Assembly: GCF_003018255.1 (NCBI RefSeq)
Contig: NZ_CP027440.1
DNA: 64,000 nt
Source of the DNA: Escherichia coli
GTDB taxonomy: Bacteria > Pseudomonadota > Gammaproteobacteria > Enterobacterales > Enterobacteriaceae
Reading direction: 5' to 3' (one strand)
Under the pieces are notes generated by a model. It had not been told where the DNA came from. It saw only the letters and a program-made list of their open reading frames with translations, and did not search any database. Position 1 is the stretch's first letter, and the number at the start of each line of letters is the position of its first letter. Shown piece after piece: positions 5,802 to 40,920 of this stretch. Position numbers and translations under genes: made by a program.

Positions 5802-6587
5802 TTAGTGCCGGTGATAGCCATCGACCATGCTTTTAAAGGTTTCGTGTGGCGTACGCCCCGTGGTGCAAAGATAAAGATGACCGAAGATAAAAAAGAGGCT
5901 TATAAATGCCAGAGCAAAATGCGCCTGCAATAACCAGTATCTTACGCCAGGAAACATATCTCCCACGGCTTGCGGATAGAGACACAGCAGCCCCGTCAAT
6001 AGTAACAATGGCAGCAATCCATACATGACACCAACATAGGCGACCTGCTGTAAGGGATTAAATTTAGACTGGGTTGTTGCCGGGAAAGGATGTTCTTCCC
6101 CCTGCATAATGCCAAACAAATAGAATCGCGTTTGTTTTGCCGCTCGCTCCAGCCCCCCCTGACGACGAATGCGATAGTGGTGACCATTACCCCCAACGGC
6201 ATTGATCAGAACAAAGCCGAGCCAGCATGCCAGTAACAAAAATCCGCAAACTTCATGCACCGCAACCAGACTTTTAACCGTAGTTGCGCCCACCAGCGCA
6301 AAGTGATTTATCAGCCCACTTGCCAGCAACAATACAAAGAGTAACGCATTCGACCAGTGCCATAATCTGACCGCTTTGCTGTAAAGATAAACCTTCTCAC
6401 CATGGTCGTTGGCTGATTTCTTCACGCCACGAGCACGAAGCAAGGCATGCAGCCCCAGCACCAACCACATCCCTACCAGCAATAGTCCGGCAATGATCAA
6501 CCACACCGGCCAAAATTGGGGAGTGAACAGTGGCACATAGTTCGCCAACTGGCTCTGAAACTGTTCAGCATGTTGCGACGGGTTCAT
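5802..6587 (-). CDS. ydhU: Integral membrane cytochrome b-type subunit (PhsC/NrfD-like), 261 aa
   Basis: Hydrophobic multi-TM ORF; ATG overlaps ydhX stop (ATGA). Confidence 0.8.
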   Translation of the reverse strand: MNPSQHAEQFQSQLANYVPLFTPQFWPVWLIIAGLLLVGMWLVLGLHALLRARGVKKSANDHGEKVYLYSKAVRLWHWSNALLFVLLLASGLINHFALVGATTVKSLVAVHEVCGFLLLACWLGFVLINAVGGNGHHYRIRRQGGLERAAKQTRFYLFGIMQGEEHPFPATTQSKFNPLQQVAYVGVMYGLLPLLLLTGLLCLYPQAVGDMFPGVRYWLLQAHFALAFISLFFIFGHLYLCTTGRTPHETFKSMVDGYHRH

Positions 6588-11732: not shown

Positions 11733-11937
11733 ACTTTGGACTGTAGAACTCAACGACTCAAAAACAGGCACTCACGTTGGGCTGAGACACAAGCACACAT
11801 TCCTCTGCACGCTTTTTCGATGTCACCTATCCTTAGAGCGAGGCACCACCACTTTCGTAATACCGGATTCGCTTTCCGGCAGTGCGCCCAGAAAGCAAGT
11901 TTCTCCCATCCTTCTCAACTTAAAGACTAAGACTGTC

Positions 11938-15113: not shown

Positions 15114-15530
15114 TTAGCTAAGTGCAGCGGCTTTGGCGCGAATTGCGCGAATCATCGCTTCCAGACCTTGTGAGCGTGATGGGGTGAGATGTTGGGTGAG
15201 CGCCATTTTTTCAAACCACGGGCGCACATCGAAATTGACAATATCCTGCGGCGTCATTTGATCGTAAAGAATAAAGACGACCGCAATAAGCCCTTTTACA
15301 ATGGCCGCATCGCTGTCGCCCTGTAATTCAATAATTCCCTGCGCATTTTGACGCATCACAATCCACACCTGACTCTGGCAGCCCTGGATGCTATTTTGCG
15401 GGCTTTTGTCTTCGTCACGTAATTCTGGCAGACGCTGACCCAACTCAATAATGTAGAGATATTTCTCTTCCCAGTTGGCGCAGCGTAAAAAATTACGCAG
15501 CAATTTTTCTTTATCCGGCAATAAAGCCAT
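15114..15530 (-). CDS. sufE: Cysteine desulfuration sulfur-acceptor protein, 138 aa
   Basis: Sequence and position at the distal end of the suf operon. Confidence 0.95.
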
Positions 15531-15542
15531 AGTGCCTCCCTG

Positions 15543-16763
15543 TTATCCCAGCAGACGGTGAATACGTTGCAGGCCGGTCACCAGACGATCCACTTCTTCA
15601 TGGGTGTTATACATGGCCAGCGATGCCCGACACATCGCAGGGACGTTGTAATAGGCCATTAATGGCATTGCGCAGTGATGTCCGGTACGCACAGCAATGC
15701 CGTAATTATCGAGAAAACTGCCAACATCATAGGCGTGGTGTTTACCGAGATTAAAAGCAATAACGCCAAGCCTGTTTTGTGGGCCATAGAGAGTGAGATC
15801 CGGTACAGATTCCAACTGTGATAACGCGTAATGCATCAGATTCTGTTCATACTCGGCTATGTTATTAAGCCCCAGCGCCGAAACATACTCCAGCGCCGCG
15901 CCAAGACCAATGATGCCTCCGGTATTGGGTGTACCGGCTTCAAACCGCCATGGTGCTTTGGTCCAGGTAGTGCCTTCACTCAGGCTGACGGTGGCGATCA
16001 TAGAACCGCCCCCTTCCCACGGCGGCATCTCCTGCAACAAGGCTTCTTTGACATAAAGAATGCCAATTCCGGTAGGGCCATACAGTTTATGCCCGGAGAA
16101 CACGTAAAAATCGCAATCCAGCGCCTGAACATCCACCGGATGATGCATCACCGCCTGAGCGCCATCCACCAGCACTTTTGCGCCATGTTGATGCGCAAGT
16201 GTGATCATCTCCGCCAGCGGATTTTCTGTCCCAAGCACGTTGGAGACATGAGTAATTGCCAGCAGACGAGTTTTCTCATCAAACAGCGTAGGCAGCGTCT
16301 CCAGTTGCAGAGTACCGTCGGGGTTGAGCGGGATCACACGCAGCTCTGCGCCAACGCGTGCACAAAGCATCTGCCAGGGGACAATGTTAGCGTGGTGCTC
16401 CATCTGACTGATGATGATGTTATCGCCCGCTCGCACATTGCTGTTGCCCCAGCTATTGGCGACCAGATTGATCCCTTCCGTCGTGCCGCGGACGAACACC
16501 AGCTCTTCCGCCGAACGGGCATTAATAAACAGCGATGCCCGCTTGCGCACGTTCTCCATTTTCTCGGTCGCCTGGGCGCTTAAGGTATGAATACCGCGAT
16601 GCACCGCCGCGTAGCCATGACGATAAAACTCAGCCTCGGCATCAATCACCTGGCTCGGTTTCTGCGCACTGGCGGCGCTGTCGAGATAAGCCAGCGGCAA
16701 ACCGTTTACCTCACGAGAAAGCACCGGAAAGTCGGCCCGCACTTTGTCGACGGAAAAAGTCAT
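15543..16763 (-). CDS. sufS: Cysteine desulfurase (PLP-dependent), 406 aa
   Basis: Class V aminotransferase sequence; start overlaps sufD stop (ATGA). Confidence 0.95.
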
Positions 16764-18031
16764 CTTGCACCTCCTGGCAGTCGTTGACCGATTCGGGCCA
16801 GCACCTGCTGTTTAAGCCCCTCATCACGCAGTGCTTCCGTCAGTTCGGCAGCAAAGGCGTAAATGATCATCTGCTGGGCATCTTGCTGATTGATCCCGCG
16901 CGAGCGCAGATAAAACATCTGTTCGTCATCAATACGCCCCACCGTCGCGCCGTGGCTGCATTTCACATCATCTGCATAGATTTCCAGCTGCGGTTTCGTA
17001 TCCACTTCCGCCAGTTTGCCCATCAGCAGATTATTGTTGGTCATCTGACCATCCGTTTTGATGGCGTGCTGCGCGACGTTGATCAAACCGTTAAATACCG
17101 CGCGGCCTTTGTCGCTGACGATAGTTTTGTGCAACTGTCGGCTGTTACAAAAACCTTTATTGTGTTCCAACCAGGTACGAGTATCACACACCTCGTTTTT
17201 CACCGGCATCGCCAGGCTATTGATCCGCAGCGTGCTGTTTTCGCCATTGAGTTGCGTACTGGTGTTGTGTCGTAATACTGCGCCACCCAGCAGGAAACTG
17301 TGGCTAAATGCGGTGGCATCGTCAGCCAGCAACAAATCGTTATGAGCAAAGTGGTGACTGAGCGGGTTTTCAAACGCCAGCTTGATATGCTGCAAATGGG
17401 CGTTCGCTGCGACGTTGATAGTGAACCGTGCGCCGGTGAAGTGACGAGCATCATTAAGGCTGACAAAATGTTCGATCACCGTTGCTTCGGCACCTTCCGC
17501 CAGATCCAGATGATGCCGGTAATGGGCAGTATTCACCTCTTCACCTGCCACGCCCTGGGTGATATGCATTAACAGCAATGGCTTTGCCGGCCGTTGACCG
17601 CGCTTCACGGCGATATGCGTCACGCTTTGTGCCAGGCTTTCCGTCAAATGCAGAAACACTTCCGCCTGAATAGCATCGGGTAACCCCTGACGGTCGTCGT
17701 TAATGCTCACTTCATATCCGCTGCCTTCAGTTGCATCGCTCAGTGCGGGCACGTAACGTCCATCGACAAACACCAGCCGCACGGCGTCTAATGTTAACGC
17801 TAAGGCATCACGCTGCTGTGGGGATATCTCCCCCGCAATGCTGACAAACTGGCTATTGGTCAGCCCGTCCAGCGGCGTATATTTCCAGTTTTCATGTTTA
17901 CGTGTCGGCAGTCCGGTACGCAGCAATTGTTGTAAATGCTGCTGTGCTTGCGGGGAGCGTTTCGCCCCTTCAGCTTCAAACAAATGATGCCACTGTTGCA
18001 GTGCGTTACTGCTGTTCGGTAAGCCAGCCAT
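16760..18031 (-). CDS. sufD: Fe-S cluster assembly protein SufD, 423 aa
   Basis: Start overlaps the 3' end of sufC by 26 nt. Confidence 0.9.
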
Positions 18032-18752
18032 AACCCTGCTCCTCCAGTTGTTTGACCAACGTGAAATCGCCGGATTTCACAATTCGTCCCTGATACAGCA
18101 CATGGACGTAATCAGGCTTGATGTAGTCGAGAATGCGTTGGTAGTGCGTAACAATGATGAATGAACGCTTGCCGTCACGCAGCGAGTTCACGCCATCGGC
18201 AACCACTTTTAATGCGTCAATATCCAGCCCGGAGTCTGACTCATCAAGAATGCATAACTCCGGTTCCAGCACCGCCATTTGCAAAATATCGTTGCGCTTT
18301 TTCTCACCGCCGGAAAAACCAACGTTTACCGAACGGGTTAATAAATCTTCCGGCATCTTCAGGAGAGCGATTTTCTCTTCCATCAAATCCTGAAAATCAA
18401 AGCGGTCGAGCGTTTCCTGGCCGCGATAGCTGCGCACCGCATTAAGTGCCGTTTGCAGGAAAAACTGGTTACTGACGCCGGGAATTTCCACCGGATACTG
18501 GAAGGCCATAAAGATGCCTTCACCTGCACGATCTTCCGGTGACAGCGCAAGCAAATCTTTGCCTTTGAACTCAACCGTGCCGCCCGTCACCTCATAATCT
18601 TCTCGCCCGGCAAGCGTTGCCGATAAGGTACTTTTGCCAGAACCGTTTGGCCCCATAATGGCGTGAACTTCGCCGGGACGAACGTCGAGGCTTAATCCAC
18701 GCAGGATAGCTTTATCTTCCACGCTGACGTGTAAATCTTTAATACTTAACAT
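18006..18752 (-). CDS. sufC: Fe-S cluster assembly ATPase, 248 aa
   Basis: Walker A GPNGSGKST and ABC signature LSGGEKKR. Confidence 0.95.
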   Translation of the reverse strand: MLSIKDLHVSVEDKAILRGLSLDVRPGEVHAIMGPNGSGKSTLSATLAGREDYEVTGGTVEFKGKDLLALSPEDRAGEGIFMAFQYPVEIPGVSNQFFLQTALNAVRSYRGQETLDRFDFQDLMEEKIALLKMPEDLLTRSVNVGFSGGEKKRNDILQMAVLEPELCILDESDSGLDIDALKVVADGVNSLRDGKRSFIIVTHYQRILDYIKPDYVHVLYQGRIVKSGDFTLVKQLEEQGYGWLTEQQ

Positions 18753-18761
18753 GTTTATTCC

Positions 18762-20249
18762 TTATCCGACGCTGTGTTCAAGACTGATGGCGAGGAGTTT
18801 TTGTGCTTCAACGGCAAATTCCAGCGGCAGTTCCGAGAACACGTCTTTGCAAAAACCGTTAACAATCATCGAGATGGCATCTTCTTCGCTGATCCCGCGT
18901 TGCAGGCAGTAAAACAGTTGATCTTCACCAATACGTGATGTCGTTGCCTCGTGCTCCAGCTGAGCGCTGTTATTGCGACATTCGACATACGGGAAGGTAT
19001 GCGCCCCACAATTAGCGCCAATCAGCATTGAATCGCACTGAGTGAAATTGCGCGCATTGGTTGCCGTCGGCATGATTTTCACTAAGCCGCGATAACTGTT
19101 CTGACTATGTCCGGCAGAGATCCCTTTCGAGATAATGGTCGATTTGGTGTTTTTACCGATGTGGATCATCTTGGTGCCGGTATCCGCTTGCTGATGACCG
19201 CTGGTCAGCGCCACTGAGTAAAACTCACCAATGGAGTTATCGCCGCGCAAAATGCAGCTGGGATATTTCCACGTAATCGCTGACCCGGTTTCTGATTGCG
19301 TCCATGACATTTTGCTGTTTTCGCCTTCGCACAACGCACGCTTGGTGACGAAGTTGAGAATACCGCCGGTGTTGTTATCGCCAGGGAACCAGTTTTGTAC
19401 CGTGGAATATTTCACCTCGGCGTTTTTATGGATGATGACTTCCACCACCGCCGCGTGTAACTGATAGCTGTCACGCACCGGAGCGGAACAGCCTTCAATG
19501 TAGCTAACGTAGCTGTCTTCGTCGGCCACCAGAATGGTGCGCTCAAACTGCCCGGTTTTTTCCGCGTTAATGCGAAAATAGGTGGAAAGTTCCATCGGGC
19601 AACGCACGCCTTTAGGCACATAAATAAACGTACCGTCAGAGGCTACCGCCGCATTAAGTGCGGCAAAGAAGTTGTCATTCCCCGGCACCACGGTGCCGAG
19701 ATATTTACGCACCAGTTCCGGGTGATCGTGGATCGCCTCGCCAAAGGAACAAAAAATAATTCCCTGCTCCGCCAGTTTTTCGCGATAAGTAGTGGCAACC
19801 GAAACAGAGTCGAAAATGGCATCCACTGCCACCTCTTTGCCTTCCCGCACGGGAACGCCCAACTGCTCAAACGCCGCCTCCACCTCTTTACTTAAAAAGG
19901 CGTTCGCGCCAGTTTGCTGCACCGCGCCGGGTTCAGACGCACAAGTGTCGTCACAATTACCGCACGATGGTGCCGAATAGTAGCTGTAATCCTGATAATT
20001 CAGCTTGTCGTAGTGCGCTTTCAACCAGTGCGGTTCTTCCATCTCCAGCCATGCGCGATAGGCATTTAGACGAAACTCCAGCATCCACTCCGGCTCATTA
20101 CGCTTCGCCGAAATTGCGCGCACCACCTCTTCGTTTATCCCCTTTGCCAGCTCATCGGTGGCTAACTGGGTGAAGAATCCTTCTTTATAATTCAGCGGGC
20201 CGCCGGTCCAGGTTTTGACATCGTCAGTTGCTTCAGTATTACGAGACAT
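18762..20249 (-). CDS. sufB: Fe-S cluster scaffold protein SufB, 495 aa
   Basis: Track ORF extends to 20288, but the ATG at 20249 gives N-terminus [10 protein letters not shown]. Confidence 0.9.
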
Positions 20250-20257
20250 AGTACCGC

Positions 20258-20626
20258 CTATACCCCAAAGCTTTCGCCACAGCCACATTCATTCTGGGCT
20301 TTAGGGTTGTGAAATTTGAATATCTGATTAAGTCCTTCACGAACGAAATCGACTTCCGTGCCATCAATAAACGGCATCGCTTGCAGCGGGACAAACAGCT
20401 TCGCGCCATCGTGTTCAAACAGCAGATCGTCTTTGTCCGGCTCGCTAACACTGTCGAGCACATAGCCAAAGCCCGCGCAGCCCGTTTGCTTCACGCCTAA
20501 GCGCACGCCGACCATACCCGGCTGCTTTGCCACCAGCTCGCGGATGTGGACAGCGGCTGCGGGTGTCAGCGTTAAGCCCTGCCAGGCGAAATCCTGTGGA
20601 TTAAAGGTTCCTGAATGCATGTCCAT
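20258..20626 (-). CDS. sufA: Fe-S cluster A-type carrier, 122 aa
   Basis: C-terminal CGCGESF motif; first gene of sufABCDSE. Confidence 0.95.
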
Positions 20627-20909: not shown

Positions 20910-20985
20910 ATAAGAAAACCCTTAAGTCTGTGCGACACAGGCTTAAGGGTTTCTACCCCATCCGGCGCTTATCTCCGGCACTCAC
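20910..20985 (-). ncRNA. rydB: Candidate small RNA RydB (boundaries approximate)
   Basis: Minus-strand intrinsic terminator (stem aaacccttaag/cttaagggttt then TTTTCTTATTTC on minus) in the sufA-ydiH spacer where RydB is known to map. Confidence 0.4.
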
Positions 20986-21174
20986 AGTGGCTTAGCTCTT
21001 GAAGGGGCGATAAGAATAATCTCATAAAGCTAACCCGCCGTTTTAACACAAACTGCGATTAGTATTATTTTTGAACAATATCAGGCGGATAGATAAGCAG
21101 TATTAAGAAGGTCATCGAACCTGGACGGAGGTTAATCCAGGTCGATTTGGCAAAATTGCGGCATTAAGTCAGGA

Positions 21175-21462: not shown

Positions 21463-21873
21463 TCACAAAATGGCGGTCGTTAATCGTGACGAACAGCACA
21501 AACGCCCTTTCTCATCGAAGATTTCAATCTGCCAGACCTGGTGACGCGAACCGAGATGCAACGGTTTGCATACGCCGCGCACCCGCCCTTCTCGTGCCGA
21601 GCGGACGTGGTTAGCATTGATTTCCAGACCAACCACCTTTTGCTCACCTTCGGTACATAAATAACCGGCAACGGAACCGATACTTTCGGCCAGTACCACG
21701 GATGCCCCTCCATGCAGCAACCCGAAAGGCTGCTTTGTCCGCGAGTCTACTGGCATTGTCGCTTCAAGGGTGTCATCACCAATATGTTCAAAGCGAATAT
21801 CCAGCAACCCCACCATGTTTCCTTCACCCATGGCATTCAGTGCTTCCAGGGTGATTTTTCGTTTCCATATCAT
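21463..21873 (-). CDS. menI: Hotdog-fold thioesterase (1,4-dihydroxy-2-naphthoyl-CoA hydrolase), 136 aa
   Basis: PaaI/YdiI-family sequence; start overlaps ydiJ stop. Confidence 0.9.
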   Translation of the reverse strand: MIWKRKITLEALNAMGEGNMVGLLDIRFEHIGDDTLEATMPVDSRTKQPFGLLHGGASVVLAESIGSVAGYLCTEGEQKVVGLEINANHVRSAREGRVRGVCKPLHLGSRHQVWQIEIFDEKGRLCCSSRLTTAIL

Positions 21874-26612: not shown

Positions 26613-26717
26613 ACGGTTATAAATCAACATATTGATTTATAAGCATGGAAATCCCCTGAGTGAAACAACGAATTGCTGTGTGTAGTCTTTGCCCATCTCC
26701 CACGATGGGCTTTTTTT
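26613..26717 (+). ncRNA. rprA: RprA small regulatory RNA (RpoS translational activator), about 105 nt
   Basis: Sequence ACGGTTATAAATCAACATATTGATTTATAAGCATGGAAATCCCCTGAGTGAAACAACGAATTGCTGTGTGTAGTCTTTGCCCATCTCCCACGATGGGCTTTTTTTT recognised as RprA, with terminal hairpin and T-run. Confidence 0.9.
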
Positions 26718-26855
26718 TAACATTTTTCCGCTTTGCTATCTCGCCCCTCACGCTTTCCAATAATGTTGCACAAGATACTGTGACTCTCTTCAAGCCGTCA
26801 GCAGGCTGATAATGTTATTTATATTTTATTGTTTATTTCATGCAGCCATTACACG

Positions 26856-37637: not shown

Positions 37638-38927
37638 ATGTCGGATGACAAATTTGATGCCATTGTGGTCGGTGCGGGCGTTGCCGGTAGCGTTGCCGCA
37701 CTGGTCATGGCGCGAGCCGGGCTGGATGTCCTGGTGATAGAACGCGGCGACAGTGCCGGATGTAAAAACATGACCGGCGGGCGTCTTTATGCCCACACAC
37801 TTGACGCAATTATTCCAGGCTTTGCAGCATCAGCGCCGGTAGAACGCAAGGTCACACGCGAGAAAATCTCCTTCTTAACCGAAGAAAGCGCCGTTACCCT
37901 CGATTTTCACCGCGAGCAACCAGATGTTCCGCAACACGCGTCTTATACCGTATTGCGTAATCGTCTGGACCCGTGGTTGATGGAACAAGCCGAGCAGGCG
38001 GGCGCGCAGTTTATCCCGGGCGTACGCGTCGATGCACTGGTTCGTGAAGGAAACAAGGTCACTGGCGTCCAGGCCGGGGATGATATTCTCGAAGCGAATG
38101 TGGTGATTCTGGCTGATGGCGTTAACTCGATGCTTGGCCGCTCGCTGGGAATGGTTTCCGCTTCCGATCCGCATCATTACGCTGTTGGTGTTAAAGAGGT
38201 TATAGGCCTGACACCAGAACAGATCAACGATCGCTTTAATGTTACGGGCGAGGAAGGTGCCGCCTGGCTGTTTGCCGGTTCCCCTTCTGACGGCCTGATG
38301 GGCGGCGGATTCCTCTATACCAACAAAGATTCCGTATCGTTGGGGCTGGTTTGTGGATTGGGTGATATCGCCCATGCGCAAAAAAGTGTGCCGCAAATGC
38401 TGGAAGATTTTAAACAACACCCCGCCATTCGCCCGCTGATTAGCGGCGGCAAACTGCTTGAATACTCCGCGCATATGGTGCCGGAGGGCGGTCTGGCAAT
38501 GGTGCCGCAGCTGGTTAACGATGGCGTGATGATCGTTGGTGACGCCGCAGGCTTCTGCCTGAATTTGGGTTTTACGGTCCGCGGCATGGATTTAGCCATT
38601 GCATCGGCTCAGGCTGCCGCCACAACAGTGATCGCCGCCAAAGAACGCGCGGATTTCTCCGCCAGCAGTCTTGCGCAATACAAACGTGAGCTGGAACAAA
38701 GCTGCGTCATGCGTGATATGCAGCATTTTCGCAAGATCCCGGCGCTGATGGAAAACCCGCGCCTGTTTAGCCAATACCCACGAATGGTCGCCGACATCAT
38801 GAACGAGATGTTCACCATCGACGGCAAACCTAACCAACCGGTACGCAAAATGATCATGGGACACGCGAAGAAAATTGGACTGATCAACTTGCTGAAAGAT
38901 GGCATTAAGGGAGCAACCGCGCTATGA
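37638..38927 (+). CDS. ydiS: FAD-dependent oxidoreductase (FixC / ETF-quinone oxidoreductase-like), 429 aa
   Basis: N-terminal FAD motif DAIVVGAGVAGS. Confidence 0.9.
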   Translation: MSDDKFDAIVVGAGVAGSVAALVMARAGLDVLVIERGDSAGCKNMTGGRLYAHTLDAIIPGFAASAPVERKVTREKISFLTEESAVTLDFHREQPDVPQHASYTVLRNRLDPWLMEQAEQAGAQFIPGVRVDALVREGNKVTGVQAGDDILEANVVILADGVNSMLGRSLGMVSASDPHHYAVGVKEVIGLTPEQINDRFNVTGEEGAAWLFAGSPSDGLMGGGFLYTNKDSVSLGLVCGLGDIAHAQKSVPQMLEDFKQHPAIRPLISGGKLLEYSAHMVPEGGLAMVPQLVNDGVMIVGDAAGFCLNLGFTVRGMDLAIASAQAAATTVIAAKERADFSASSLAQYKRELEQSCVMRDMQHFRKIPALMENPRLFSQYPRMVADIMNEMFTIDGKPNQPVRKMIMGHAKKIGLINLLKDGIKGATAL

Positions 38928-39217
38928 GCCAGAACGCTACGGTTAACGTCGACATCAAATTAGGCGTAAATAAATTCCATGTTGATGAGGGCCACCCGCA
39001 TATCATTCTGGCGGCAAATCCCGATATCAATGAATTCCGTAAATTAATGAAAGCCTGCCCTGCCGGACTTTATAAGCAGGATGACGCAGGAAACATTCAT
39101 TTCGATTCCGCCGGTTGTCTGGAGTGCGGCACCTGTCGGGTGCTGTGCGGCAACACTATTCTCGAACAGTGGCAATATCCCGCAGGCACCTTCGGTATTG
39201 AATTTCGCTACGGCTAA
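38924..39217 (+). CDS. ydiT: FixX-type ferredoxin-like protein, 97 aa
   Basis: CxxCxxC cysteine motif; start overlaps ydiS stop (ATGA). Confidence 0.85.
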   Translation: MSQNATVNVDIKLGVNKFHVDEGHPHIILAANPDINEFRKLMKACPAGLYKQDDAGNIHFDSAGCLECGTCRVLCGNTILEQWQYPAGTFGIEFRYG

Positions 39218-39219
39218 TC

Positions 39220-40920
39220 ATGCATCCCACAGGCCCGCATCTCGGGCCTGATGTTCTGTTTCGAGAGTCCAAAATGAAAGTGACATTAACGTTCAACGAA
39301 CAACGTCGTGCGGCGTATCGTCAGCAAGGGTTATGGGGCGATGCTTCACTGGCCGATTACTGGCAGCAGACCGCTCGTGCGATGCCAGACAAAATTGCCG
39401 TGGTCGACAATCATGGTGCAACGTACACTTATAGCGCGCTCGATCACGCCGCGAGCTGTCTGGCAAACTGGATGTTAGCGAAGGGTATTGAATCAGGCGA
39501 TCGCATCGCATTTCAACTGCCAGGCTGGTGTGAATTTACCGTTATCTATCTTGCCTGCCTGAAAACCGGTGCGGTTTCCGTGCCGCTGTTGCCTTCCTGG
39601 CGAGAAGCAGAACTGGTGTGGGTGCTCAATAAGTGTCAGGCAAAAATGTTCTTTGCACCGACGTTGTTTAAACAAACGCGTCCGGTAGATTTAATCCTGC
39701 CGCTGCAAAATCAGCTTCCACAACTACAACAAATTGTCGGCGTGGACAAACTGGCTCCCGCCACCTCTGCTCTCTCATTAAGTCAGATTATCGCCGACAA
39801 TACTCCTCTGACCACGGCGATAACGGTCCACGGCGATGAATTAGCCGCGGTGCTGTTTACCTCCGGAACCGAGGGTCTGCCAAAGGGCGTGATGCTAACG
39901 CATAACAATATTCTCGCCAGTGAGCGGGCTTATTGCGCGCGGCTAAATCTGACCTGGCAGGATGTCTTTATGATGCCTGCGCCACTTGGTCACGCAACGG
40001 GCTTTCTGCATGGCGTAACAGCACCTTTTTTGATTGGTGCTCGCAGCGTGTTGTTAGATATTTTCACTCCTGCTGCGTGTCTCGCGCTGCTTGAGCAGCA
40101 GCGTTGCACCTGTATGCTCGGCGCAACGCCGTTTGTCTATGATCTTTTGAATTTACTGGAGAAACAGCCCGCAGACCTTTCAGCGCTGCGTTTCTTTCTT
40201 TGCGGCGGTACCACAATCCCCAAAAAAGTGGCGCGTGAATGCCAGCAGCGCGGCATTAAATTATTAAGTGTTTATGGTTCCACAGAAAGTTCGCCGCATG
40301 CGGTGGTGAATCTCGATGATCCTTTGTCGCGCTTTATACACACCGATGGTTACGCTGCCGCAGGTGTAGAGATTAAAGTGGTCGATGACGCACGCAAGAC
40401 TTTACCGCCAGGTTGCGAAGGTGAAGAAGCCTCGCGTGGCCCCAATGTGTTTATGGGGTATTTTGATGAACCTGAATTAACCGCCCGTGCGCTGGATGAA
40501 GAAGGCTGGTATTACAGCGGCGATCTCTGCCGCATGGATGAGGCTGGCTATATAAAAATAACCGGGCGCAAGAAAGATATTATTGTCCGCGGCGGCGAAA
40601 ATATTAGCAGCCGTGAAGTAGAAGATATTTTATTGCAGCATCCTAAAATTCACGATGCTTGTGTGGTTGCAATGCCCGATGAACGCTTAGGTGAACGTTC
40701 ATGCGCTTATGTCGTGCTGAAAGCACCGCATCATTCATTATCGCTGGAAGATGTAGTGGCATTTTTTAGCCGTAAACGGGTCGCGAAATATAAATATCCT
40801 GAACATATCGTGGTAATCGAAAAACTACCGCGCACAGCCTCAGGTAAAATACAAAAGTTTTTGTTAAGGAAAGATATTATGCGGCGATTAACTCAGGATG
40901 TCTGTGAAGAGATTGAATAA
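39220..40920 (+). CDS. fadK: Short/medium-chain acyl-CoA synthetase, 566 aa (alternative start at 39274 would give 548 aa)
   Basis: AMP-binding motif FTSGTEGLPKG; ATG at 39220 lies 2 nt after the ydiT stop. Confidence 0.85.
   Translation: MHPTGPHLGPDVLFRESKMKVTLTFNEQRRAAYRQQGLWGDASLADYWQQTARAMPDKIAVVDNHGATYTYSALDHAASCLANWMLAKGIESGDRIAFQLPGWCEFTVIYLACLKTGAVSVPLLPSWREAELVWVLNKCQAKMFFAPTLFKQTRPVDLILPLQNQLPQLQQIVGVDKLAPATSALSLSQIIADNTPLTTAITVHGDELAAVLFTSGTEGLPKGVMLTHNNILASERAYCARLNLTWQDVFMMPAPLGHATGFLHGVTAPFLIGARSVLLDIFTPAACLALLEQQRCTCMLGATPFVYDLLNLLEKQPADLSALRFFLCGGTTIPKKVARECQQRGIKLLSVYGSTESSPHAVVNLDDPLSRFIHTDGYAAAGVEIKVVDDARKTLPPGCEGEEASRGPNVFMGYFDEPELTARALDEEGWYYSGDLCRMDEAGYIKITGRKKDIIVRGGENISSREVEDILLQHPKIHDACVVAMPDERLGERSCAYVVLKAPHHSLSLEDVVAFFSRKRVAKYKYPEHIVVIEKLPRTASGKIQKFLLRKDIMRRLTQDVCEEIE

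Follow-up and report, generated by a model that had tools for sequence, protein, structure and literature searches.

The overlapping start and stop codons of the sufABCDSE operon, located on the minus strand at positions 15114-20626 of a 64,000-nucleotide (nt) stretch of the Escherichia coli chromosome (the window), and those of other operons in the same window were analyzed for correctness of annotation, conservation and possible translational coupling. The results indicate, with a probability of about 0.7, that the start/stop overlaps are of an ordinary kind, lie within polycistronic operons and are annotated correctly, that the gene pairs spaced at -4 or -1 nt are facultatively coupled, and that sufD, whose start codon lies inside sufC, is translated from an internal start driven by a Shine-Dalgarno (SD) sequence.

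Junction distances, measured from the upstream stop to the downstream start, were determined for all 45 pairs of adjacent same-strand genes in the window. Six pairs overlapped (13%), and all six had been named in the initial annotation. The 26-nt sufC/sufD overlap and the ATGA at sufD/sufS which it described are both present in the sequence, and ATGA is also found at ydhX/ydhU, ydiJ/menI and ydiS/ydiT. The btuE/btuD junction, which had been grouped with these, is a 1-nt TAATG overlap and not ATGA, and in the pair given as menI/ydiJ the overlap exists but ydiJ is the upstream gene. A stop/start spacing of -8 to +6 was found for sufD/sufS, ydhX/ydhU, ydiJ/menI and ydiS/ydiT (-4 each) and for btuE/btuD (-1), but not for sufC/sufD (-26). 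On the other hand, the description of the overlaps as extensive was overstated: only two of the five suf junctions overlap, and the proportion in the window compares with a figure of about 15% for co-directional pairs across most groups of prokaryotes (PMC6728339). In strain K-12, 707 of 2987 unidirectional pairs (24%) fall in the -8 to +6 class and a further 7% at +9 to +12 (PMC10666635), against 8 of 45 and 4 of 45, respectively, in the window, the latter including sufB>sufC and sufS>sufE. Among the 45 pairs no enrichment was detected, either of overlaps (binomial p=1.0) or of the -8 to +6 class (p=0.48). The -4 and -1 distances are the two commonest spacings across prokaryotes, and the E. 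coli table of Huber et al. 2023 (PMC10666635) holds all six pairs with the same distances, sufC-sufD being entered as '-26, CMPLX yes'; the overlaps themselves are therefore already known. Nor are they hidden by automated annotation, as had been supposed, since both the Prokaryotic Genome Annotation Pipeline (PGAP) and the K-12 record carry them. The overlaps belong to the commonest bacterial junction type, only the conserved 26-base sufC/sufD overlap being different, and mildly unusual.

The suf stretch is bounded exactly by the stop of sufE and the start of sufA. It was matched by megablast in 5,424 of 5,426 complete E. coli genomes and is 100% identical to several RefSeq E. coli genomes, in which it is annotated as sufA-sufB-sufC-sufD-sufS-sufE. 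The six genes have the same direction, the order A-B-C-D-S-E and homology to the K-12 genes, and this identifies them as the sufABCDSE Fe-S cluster assembly operon. PGAP gene annotation was carried over to the window from the near-identical genome NZ_AP045067.1, and all 59 protein genes mapped as intact open reading frames (ORFs). The operon of K-12 MG1655 (b1684-b1679) has the same six genes, with the same order, lengths, gene coordinates and junction distances (+8, +9, -26, -4, +12), and shows 97.5% nucleotide identity to the window suf genes with zero indels. The differences are strain-level substitutions only; for example, residue 2 of SufS is Thr here and Ile in K-12, the ATGA being kept. 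Since the two operons have this identity, no indels and the same gene coordinates, K-12 experimental data are applicable to the window suf genes. The genes are co-directional and listed as one transcription unit, sufABCDSE, in the supplement of PMC10666635, and neither promoter-like sites (4 versus 5.9 expected from shuffled sequence) nor terminator-like sites (5 versus 7.5) were in excess within suf. These counts and the recorded unit would fit a single mRNA carrying the junction effects.

The initial annotation had proposed ribosome profiling or N-terminal proteomics as a check of the chosen starts, and published K-12 data of both kinds confirmed part of them. In the TRAINSPOTTER N-terminomics data a SufS peptide, MIFSVDKVR (residues 1-9), and a BtuD peptide (residues 2-15) lie at the database starts, for both of which the TRAINSPOTTER authors state Ribo-RET and INRI support; no peptides for sufB, sufC, sufD, pykF, ydiJ, ydhV, ydiQ, menI, ydiT or ydhU were among the matches listed. 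In INRI-seq, initiation is arrested by retapamulin in vitro, in a pure system supplied with synthetic mRNAs of 30 nt upstream plus 150 nt coding sequence. By this method the annotated K-12 starts of sufS, menI, btuD and ydhU were clearly detected (Table 1), that of sufD was marginal (0/0/6/0/10 counts per million, CPM, over five replicates), and no peak was seen at the ydiT start. The junction sequence does not differ in K-12. No in-frame start candidate exists upstream of the annotated start for any of the six downstream genes. The next in-frame candidates of sufD, TTG17 (-2.5 kcal/mol) and TTG36 (+0.3), are without a Shine-Dalgarno sequence and not conserved, and the next one of ydiT is ATG42 of a 97-amino acid (aa) protein; the putative ydiT start is assigned solely from the absence of an alternative before codon 42. 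Taken together, these results establish the annotated start for each of the six downstream genes.

The conservation of the sufC/sufD overlap was analyzed in a comparative set obtained by one SufD scan of species-representative genomes, which covers 80 Enterobacteriaceae species with 75-98% aa identity. The sufD ATG is formed within the SufC Tyr241-Gly242 codons TAT GGC, and both its position inside sufC and the -26 distance are kept in 80/80 species. Before codon 36 no in-frame start of sufD is conserved apart from the annotated ATG; a start at codon 36 is found in 58/80 species and is absent in E. coli. Residues 11-19 of SufD (LQQWHxLFE) are conserved across the species compared, and since this motif begins directly past the sufC stop, translation of sufD must start inside sufC. 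The sufD SD sequence forms an anti-SD duplex of -9.3 kcal/mol and is made up of SufC codons, which are constrained as well. Among sufC codons 235-248 (18006-18047), 5/11 were codon-invariant in 78 species (GAG237, GAG238, TAT241, GGC242 and GAA246), compared with 0/116 of the degenerate codons for invariant residues in the sufC body (Fisher p=1.8e-6), and the GAG GAG of SufC 237-238 was codon-invariant in 78/78. At the level of sequence comparison, these codons provide direct evidence that synonymous sites of sufC are under selection, which would preserve the sufD SD sequence and start.

The overlap is in the -8 phase (26 = 8 + 18, a length congruent with -8 modulo 3). Only one of the 59 start regions of the window has a higher predicted opening energy than that of sufD (13.2 kcal/mol), which, when isolated, is a poor initiator in INRI-seq. 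For the SufC>SufB/D COG pair across prokaryotes, the portion of the table available gives the unlabelled values 2.6, -4 and 18.3 nt over 1,139 genomes; the -26 distance looks like a lineage-specific variant, since the pair is typically tighter elsewhere. A SufC-SufD fusion produced by +1 frameshifting in the overlap was also considered, and found to be without a slippery motif or other support.

The sufD>sufS junction is ATGA in 78/80 species. In the remaining two the stop codon comes earlier, giving +2 in Salmonella enterica subsp. arizonae (...GGAGGCTGAGCATG) and +1 in Kosakonia sacchari (...GGGGCGTAGCATG). The sufS SD sequence (-13.9 kcal/mol) is the strongest of the same-strand junctions in the window, and a GGAGG or GGGG run is kept 5' of sufS in related species although the C-terminal residues of SufD vary. 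The non-overlapping suf junctions, in contrast, drift in the same species set: sufA>sufB from +2 to +10, sufB>sufC from +9 to +31 and sufS>sufE from +8 to +15. For the SufB/D>SufS COG pair the available portion of the tabulation across prokaryotes gives -1, -4 and 25.2 nt, again as unlabelled values, and this pair too is as a rule very tight. As judged from these alignments, the suf overlaps are evolutionarily stable.

Table 1. Genes, junctions and initiation elements of the suf operon and overlapping junctions elsewhere in the window
Feature	Position	Strand	Distance (nt)	Details
sufA	20258-20626	-		122 aa; first gene of sufABCDSE; PGAP mapping; INRI-seq 618-974 CPM at K-12 start
sufB	18762-20249	-		495 aa; ATG 8 nt past sufA stop
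sufC	18006-18752	-		248 aa; ATG 9 nt past sufB stop; INRI-seq 41-67 CPM
sufD	16760-18031	-		423 aa; ATG at 18031 is the only conserved in-frame start
sufS	15543-16763	-		406 aa; INRI-seq 55-70 CPM, 5/5 replicates
sufE	15114-15530	-		138 aa; ATG 12 nt past sufS stop
sufC/sufD overlap	18006-18031	-		ATGGCTGGCTTACCGAACAGCAGTAA; sufD frame one base later than sufC; read directly
sufD Shine-Dalgarno	18039-18045	-		GGAGGAG; SufC Glu237-Glu238 codons GAG GAG, 7 nt 5' of ATG
sufS Shine-Dalgarno	16769-16775	-		AGGAGGT; inside sufD 3' end; -13.9 kcal/mol
sufA>sufB		-	+8	minus strand read directly and computed junctions
sufB>sufC		-	+9	minus strand read directly and computed junctions
sufC>sufD		-	-26	sufD ATG 18031-18029; sufC TAA 18008-18006
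sufD>sufS		-	-4	ATGA at 16763-16760
sufS>sufE		-	+12	minus strand read directly and computed junctions
ydhX>ydhU (phsC)	6584-6587	-	-4	ATGA; -4 also in K-12; INRI-seq ydhU 17-26 CPM
ydiJ>menI	21870-21873	-	-4	ATGA; ydiJ upstream; -4 also in K-12; INRI-seq menI 757-1613 CPM
ydiS>ydiT	38924-38927	+	-4	ATGA; -4 also in K-12; no INRI-seq peak at ydiT
btuE>btuD	49802	-	-1	TAATG; BtuD N-terminal peptide; INRI-seq 78-144 CPM

The proposal that the overlaps imply translational coupling is supported only in part: it is a reasonable analogy for the five -4/-1 pairs and is weakest for the 26-nt pair, which had headed the initial annotation. Five of the six window junctions have exactly the spacings of the coupled -4 (ATGA) and -1 (TAATG/TGATG) pairs described by Huber et al. 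2019 (PMC6728339) and 2023 (PMC10666635), and in each the upstream gene carries some purine-rich, SD-like sequence at its 3' end. They differ from those pairs in lying outside the experimentally tested set, in the near absence of an SD sequence at btuD (-2.6 kcal/mol) and in that several of their starts initiate de novo in vitro. Apart from this weak btuD site, the SD sequences within upstream 3' ends had anti-SD energies that decrease in strength from sufS and sufD to ydiT (-7.6 kcal/mol), menI (-6.4) and ydhU (-5.6). Among other native E. coli ATGA pairs, 4/5 were coupled and bioBF was uncoupled, the contribution of the SD sequence differing from pair to pair (PMC6728339). Coupling by termination-reinitiation is, by analogy with these pairs, a reasonable default expectation at the -4/-1 junctions: a ribosome ending the upstream gene would often re-initiate at the adjacent start, aided by the SD sequence in the upstream gene. 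However, sufS, menI, btuD and ydhU initiate on templates with 30 nt of upstream sequence, without upstream translation, so that overlap does not mean obligatory coupling; since several of these start regions initiate alone, the coupling is probably facultative here.

For the sufC/sufD pair the published comparisons are less favorable to coupling. Coupling falls faster with growing overlap than with growing gap and is absent at -25 nt in a synthetic operon (review PMC12548453), and PMC10666635 describes the long overlaps of the -8 phase as uncoupled in the typical case. Like that class, which is described as retained, the -26 overlap is not reducible to -4 or -1 by point mutation; unlike a recent accident, it is found in 80/80 species with selection on sufC synonymous sites. 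The statement in a Salmonella ribosome profiling preprint that stoichiometric production of SufB, SufC and SufD is set mainly by translation efficiency argues against a simple 1:1 coupling of sufC and sufD. The codons of the conserved SufC tail ..L-E-E-Q-G-Y-G-W.. contain the sufD initiation region (GGAGGAG, 7-nt spacer, AUG), with the stop of sufC 26 nt beyond the AUG; sufD most likely initiates at this internal, SD-driven site. Ribosomes translating sufC may assist it by keeping the site unfolded or by supplying subunits locally. Such assistance would be below 1:1 efficiency and give an output lower than that of sufC, which would fit the SufB1C2D1 complex with a translationally set ratio. 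The sufD start and its conservation are established; the degree and mode of its coupling are what we infer.

In the RNA-unfolding model of coupling (PMC12548453), ribosomes finishing sufC, which must cross the sufD start region, would melt structure there, in line with its high opening energy. The difference is that the search for structure at sufD revealed none that was significantly stable or covarying, and an occluding hairpin in which the AUG of sufD would pair with the stop of sufC is not supported. The window also contains rpmI-rplT, a classic case of RNA-unfolding, translationally coupled despite a gap. Unlike sufC/sufD, it works across +53 nt. Overlap is thus neither necessary nor sufficient for coupling. 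In the same segment of the minus strand (51796-56887), the junctions thrS>infC (+3, infC having an ATT start), pheT>ihfA (+4), pheS>pheT (+14) and rpmI>rplT (+53), none of them named in the initial annotation, are tight without overlapping.

The view that annotation artefacts account for the overlaps, with sufD, sufS and the other genes truly starting downstream of the upstream stops, draws on the fact that a longest-ORF rule overshoots 18/59 window genes, start errors thus being common in principle, and on the marginal INRI-seq support for sufD and lack of it for ydiT. It is extremely improbable, because residue 1 or 2 of the annotated protein is the first in the SufS and BtuD peptides, the TTG17 and TTG36 alternatives of sufD are neither conserved nor preceded by an SD sequence, LQQWHxLFE begins directly past the sufC stop, sufC synonymous sites are frozen at the sufD SD sequence and ATG, and ydiT would have to start as late as ATG42 of 97 codons. 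Mis-set starts were therefore rejected for sufS and btuD on the N-terminal peptides and for sufD on conservation. If the starts are real, the overlaps could still be neutral by-products of compact operons and of stop- and start-codon drift, each gene initiating independently de novo at its own SD sequence. De novo in vitro initiation at 4/6 overlapped starts, the precedent of bioBF as an uncoupled ATGA pair (PMC6728339), the closeness of ATGA to any ATG start, from which it differs by one mutation (PMC10666635), and an overlap frequency equal to the genome background agree with this. We nevertheless regard it as unlikely, in view of the ATGA kept at sufD/sufS in 78/80 species, with exceptions of only +1 and +2 against a variation of as much as 22 nt at the suf junctions without overlap, the more than 10-fold excess of -4 and -1 over neighboring distances in 1,695 genomes (PMC10666635), and the weak or absent initiation of sufD and ydiT when isolated.

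This last observation would equally suit the opposite extreme, a strict version of the initial annotation's proposal, in which every overlap, including that of 26 nt, enforces tight termination-reinitiation and neighbors are made at a fixed 1:1 ratio, as would the coupling of 4/5 tested native ATGA pairs (PMC6728339) and the 4.5-fold enrichment of short overlaps among E. coli genes for heteromeric complexes (PMC10666635), SufC and SufD sharing one complex. Strict coupling is, however, quite unlikely: it is absent at -25 nt in the synthetic operon (PMC12548453); the SufBC2D complex is 1:2:1, and the Salmonella profiling preprint attributes such ratios to differing translation efficiency; sufS, menI, btuD and ydhU initiate without upstream translation; and BtuE is not a BtuCD subunit, nor do YdiJ and MenI have a known complex ('CMPLX not', PMC10666635). 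We consider it similarly unlikely that the 26-nt overlap is a selected attenuator, in which a sufC stop 26 nt beyond the sufD AUG, combined with a strong SD sequence set in SufC tail codons, would keep re-initiation inefficient and yield SufD at about half the SufC rate, matching SufB1C2D1; the arrangement and the synonymous-site invariance in the 80 species are compatible with an attenuator and with a plain dual-coding constraint equally.

The preferred reading, ordinary overlaps with facultative coupling at -4/-1 and an internal SD-driven sufD start, has several results weighing against it. Zeros are common and unspecific in INRI-seq, sufB, ydhX and btuC also being zero, and sufE combines a high predicted opening energy with a strong INRI-seq signal. 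In vivo Ribo-RET (the Meydan column of the INRI-seq table) gives the value 0 at each of the six downstream genes, probably due to poor expression in rich medium, and is for that matter uninformative. The hairpin predicted at the sufD AUG and sufC stop has z=-0.86, with 34/200 shuffles folding as well, and in most species a C.A mismatch replaces its U18-A45 pair, while the rest of the stem is invariant, so that there is no covariation. The constancy of the -26 distance partly follows from the dual-coding constraint and is not proof of function, and the Salmonella evidence is a statement made in a preprint. Finally, no published coupling experiment on any of the six pairs was found in the literature searched, in which the search for coupling in suf gave only an incidental match.

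The initial annotation was right that several ORFs run longer than the real genes. For all five genes it named, the longest ORF exceeded the gene: sufB (508 versus 495 aa), ydhV (728 versus 700), ydiJ (1042 versus 1018), pykF (542 versus 470) and ydiQ (287 versus 254). The longest ORF of sufB starts at 20288 and would create a false 31-nt overlap with sufA. In about 16 related species an in-frame stop separates the sufB -13 codon from the annotated ATG, which is thus the only start common to all species, supporting the shorter gene. The 542-aa ORF of pykF, from 11722 on the plus strand, crosses the DNA of ynhH, a small ORF (TTG start, 64 aa; 11736-11930, plus strand) that ends 7 nt before the pykF ATG; since the long ORF runs through ynhH DNA in another frame, it seems too long. 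At the ydiT/fadK junction (39217-39274, plus strand), PGAP and K-12 (INRI-seq table) place the fadK start at 39274 (548 aa, +56 nt), and INRI-seq gave 15-30 CPM at this start. The longest fadK ORF starts at 39220 (566 aa, +2 nt after ydiT), an older start still present in the PMC10666635 table, so that the apparent tight junction depends on the fadK start chosen.

Two small RNA genes and two antisense ORFs were also observed in the window. A full-length match to rydB (Rfam RF00118, 83 bits) at 20948-21008 (minus strand) is absent from the PGAP records examined; it sits between ydiH and sufA, in an intergenic region of 548 nt, on the upstream side of the suf promoter. RprA lies at 26613-26720 (plus strand). 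Long plus-strand ORFs inside sufS/sufD, of 250 aa at 15831-16583 and 246 aa at 16535-17275, most likely represent shadow ORFs cast by the coding strand.

The relevance of the overlaps beyond annotation quality control is small. The analysis confirms the starts of the region as right; a longest-ORF rule would lengthen 18/59 genes and join sufA to sufB by an overlap that does not exist. The one result that is mildly notable, and only mildly, is the family-wide invariant 26-nt overlap together with the frozen synonymous sites of sufC, which carry the ribosome-binding site and the start of sufD. Its biological interest is modest: a conserved SufC tail encodes the elements that initiate sufD, and this constrains SufC synonymous sites throughout the family. 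The sufC/sufD pair is thereby a clean test case, provided by nature, of the amount of coupling that persists over a long overlap and of the way in which a single mRNA yields a 2:1 subunit ratio.

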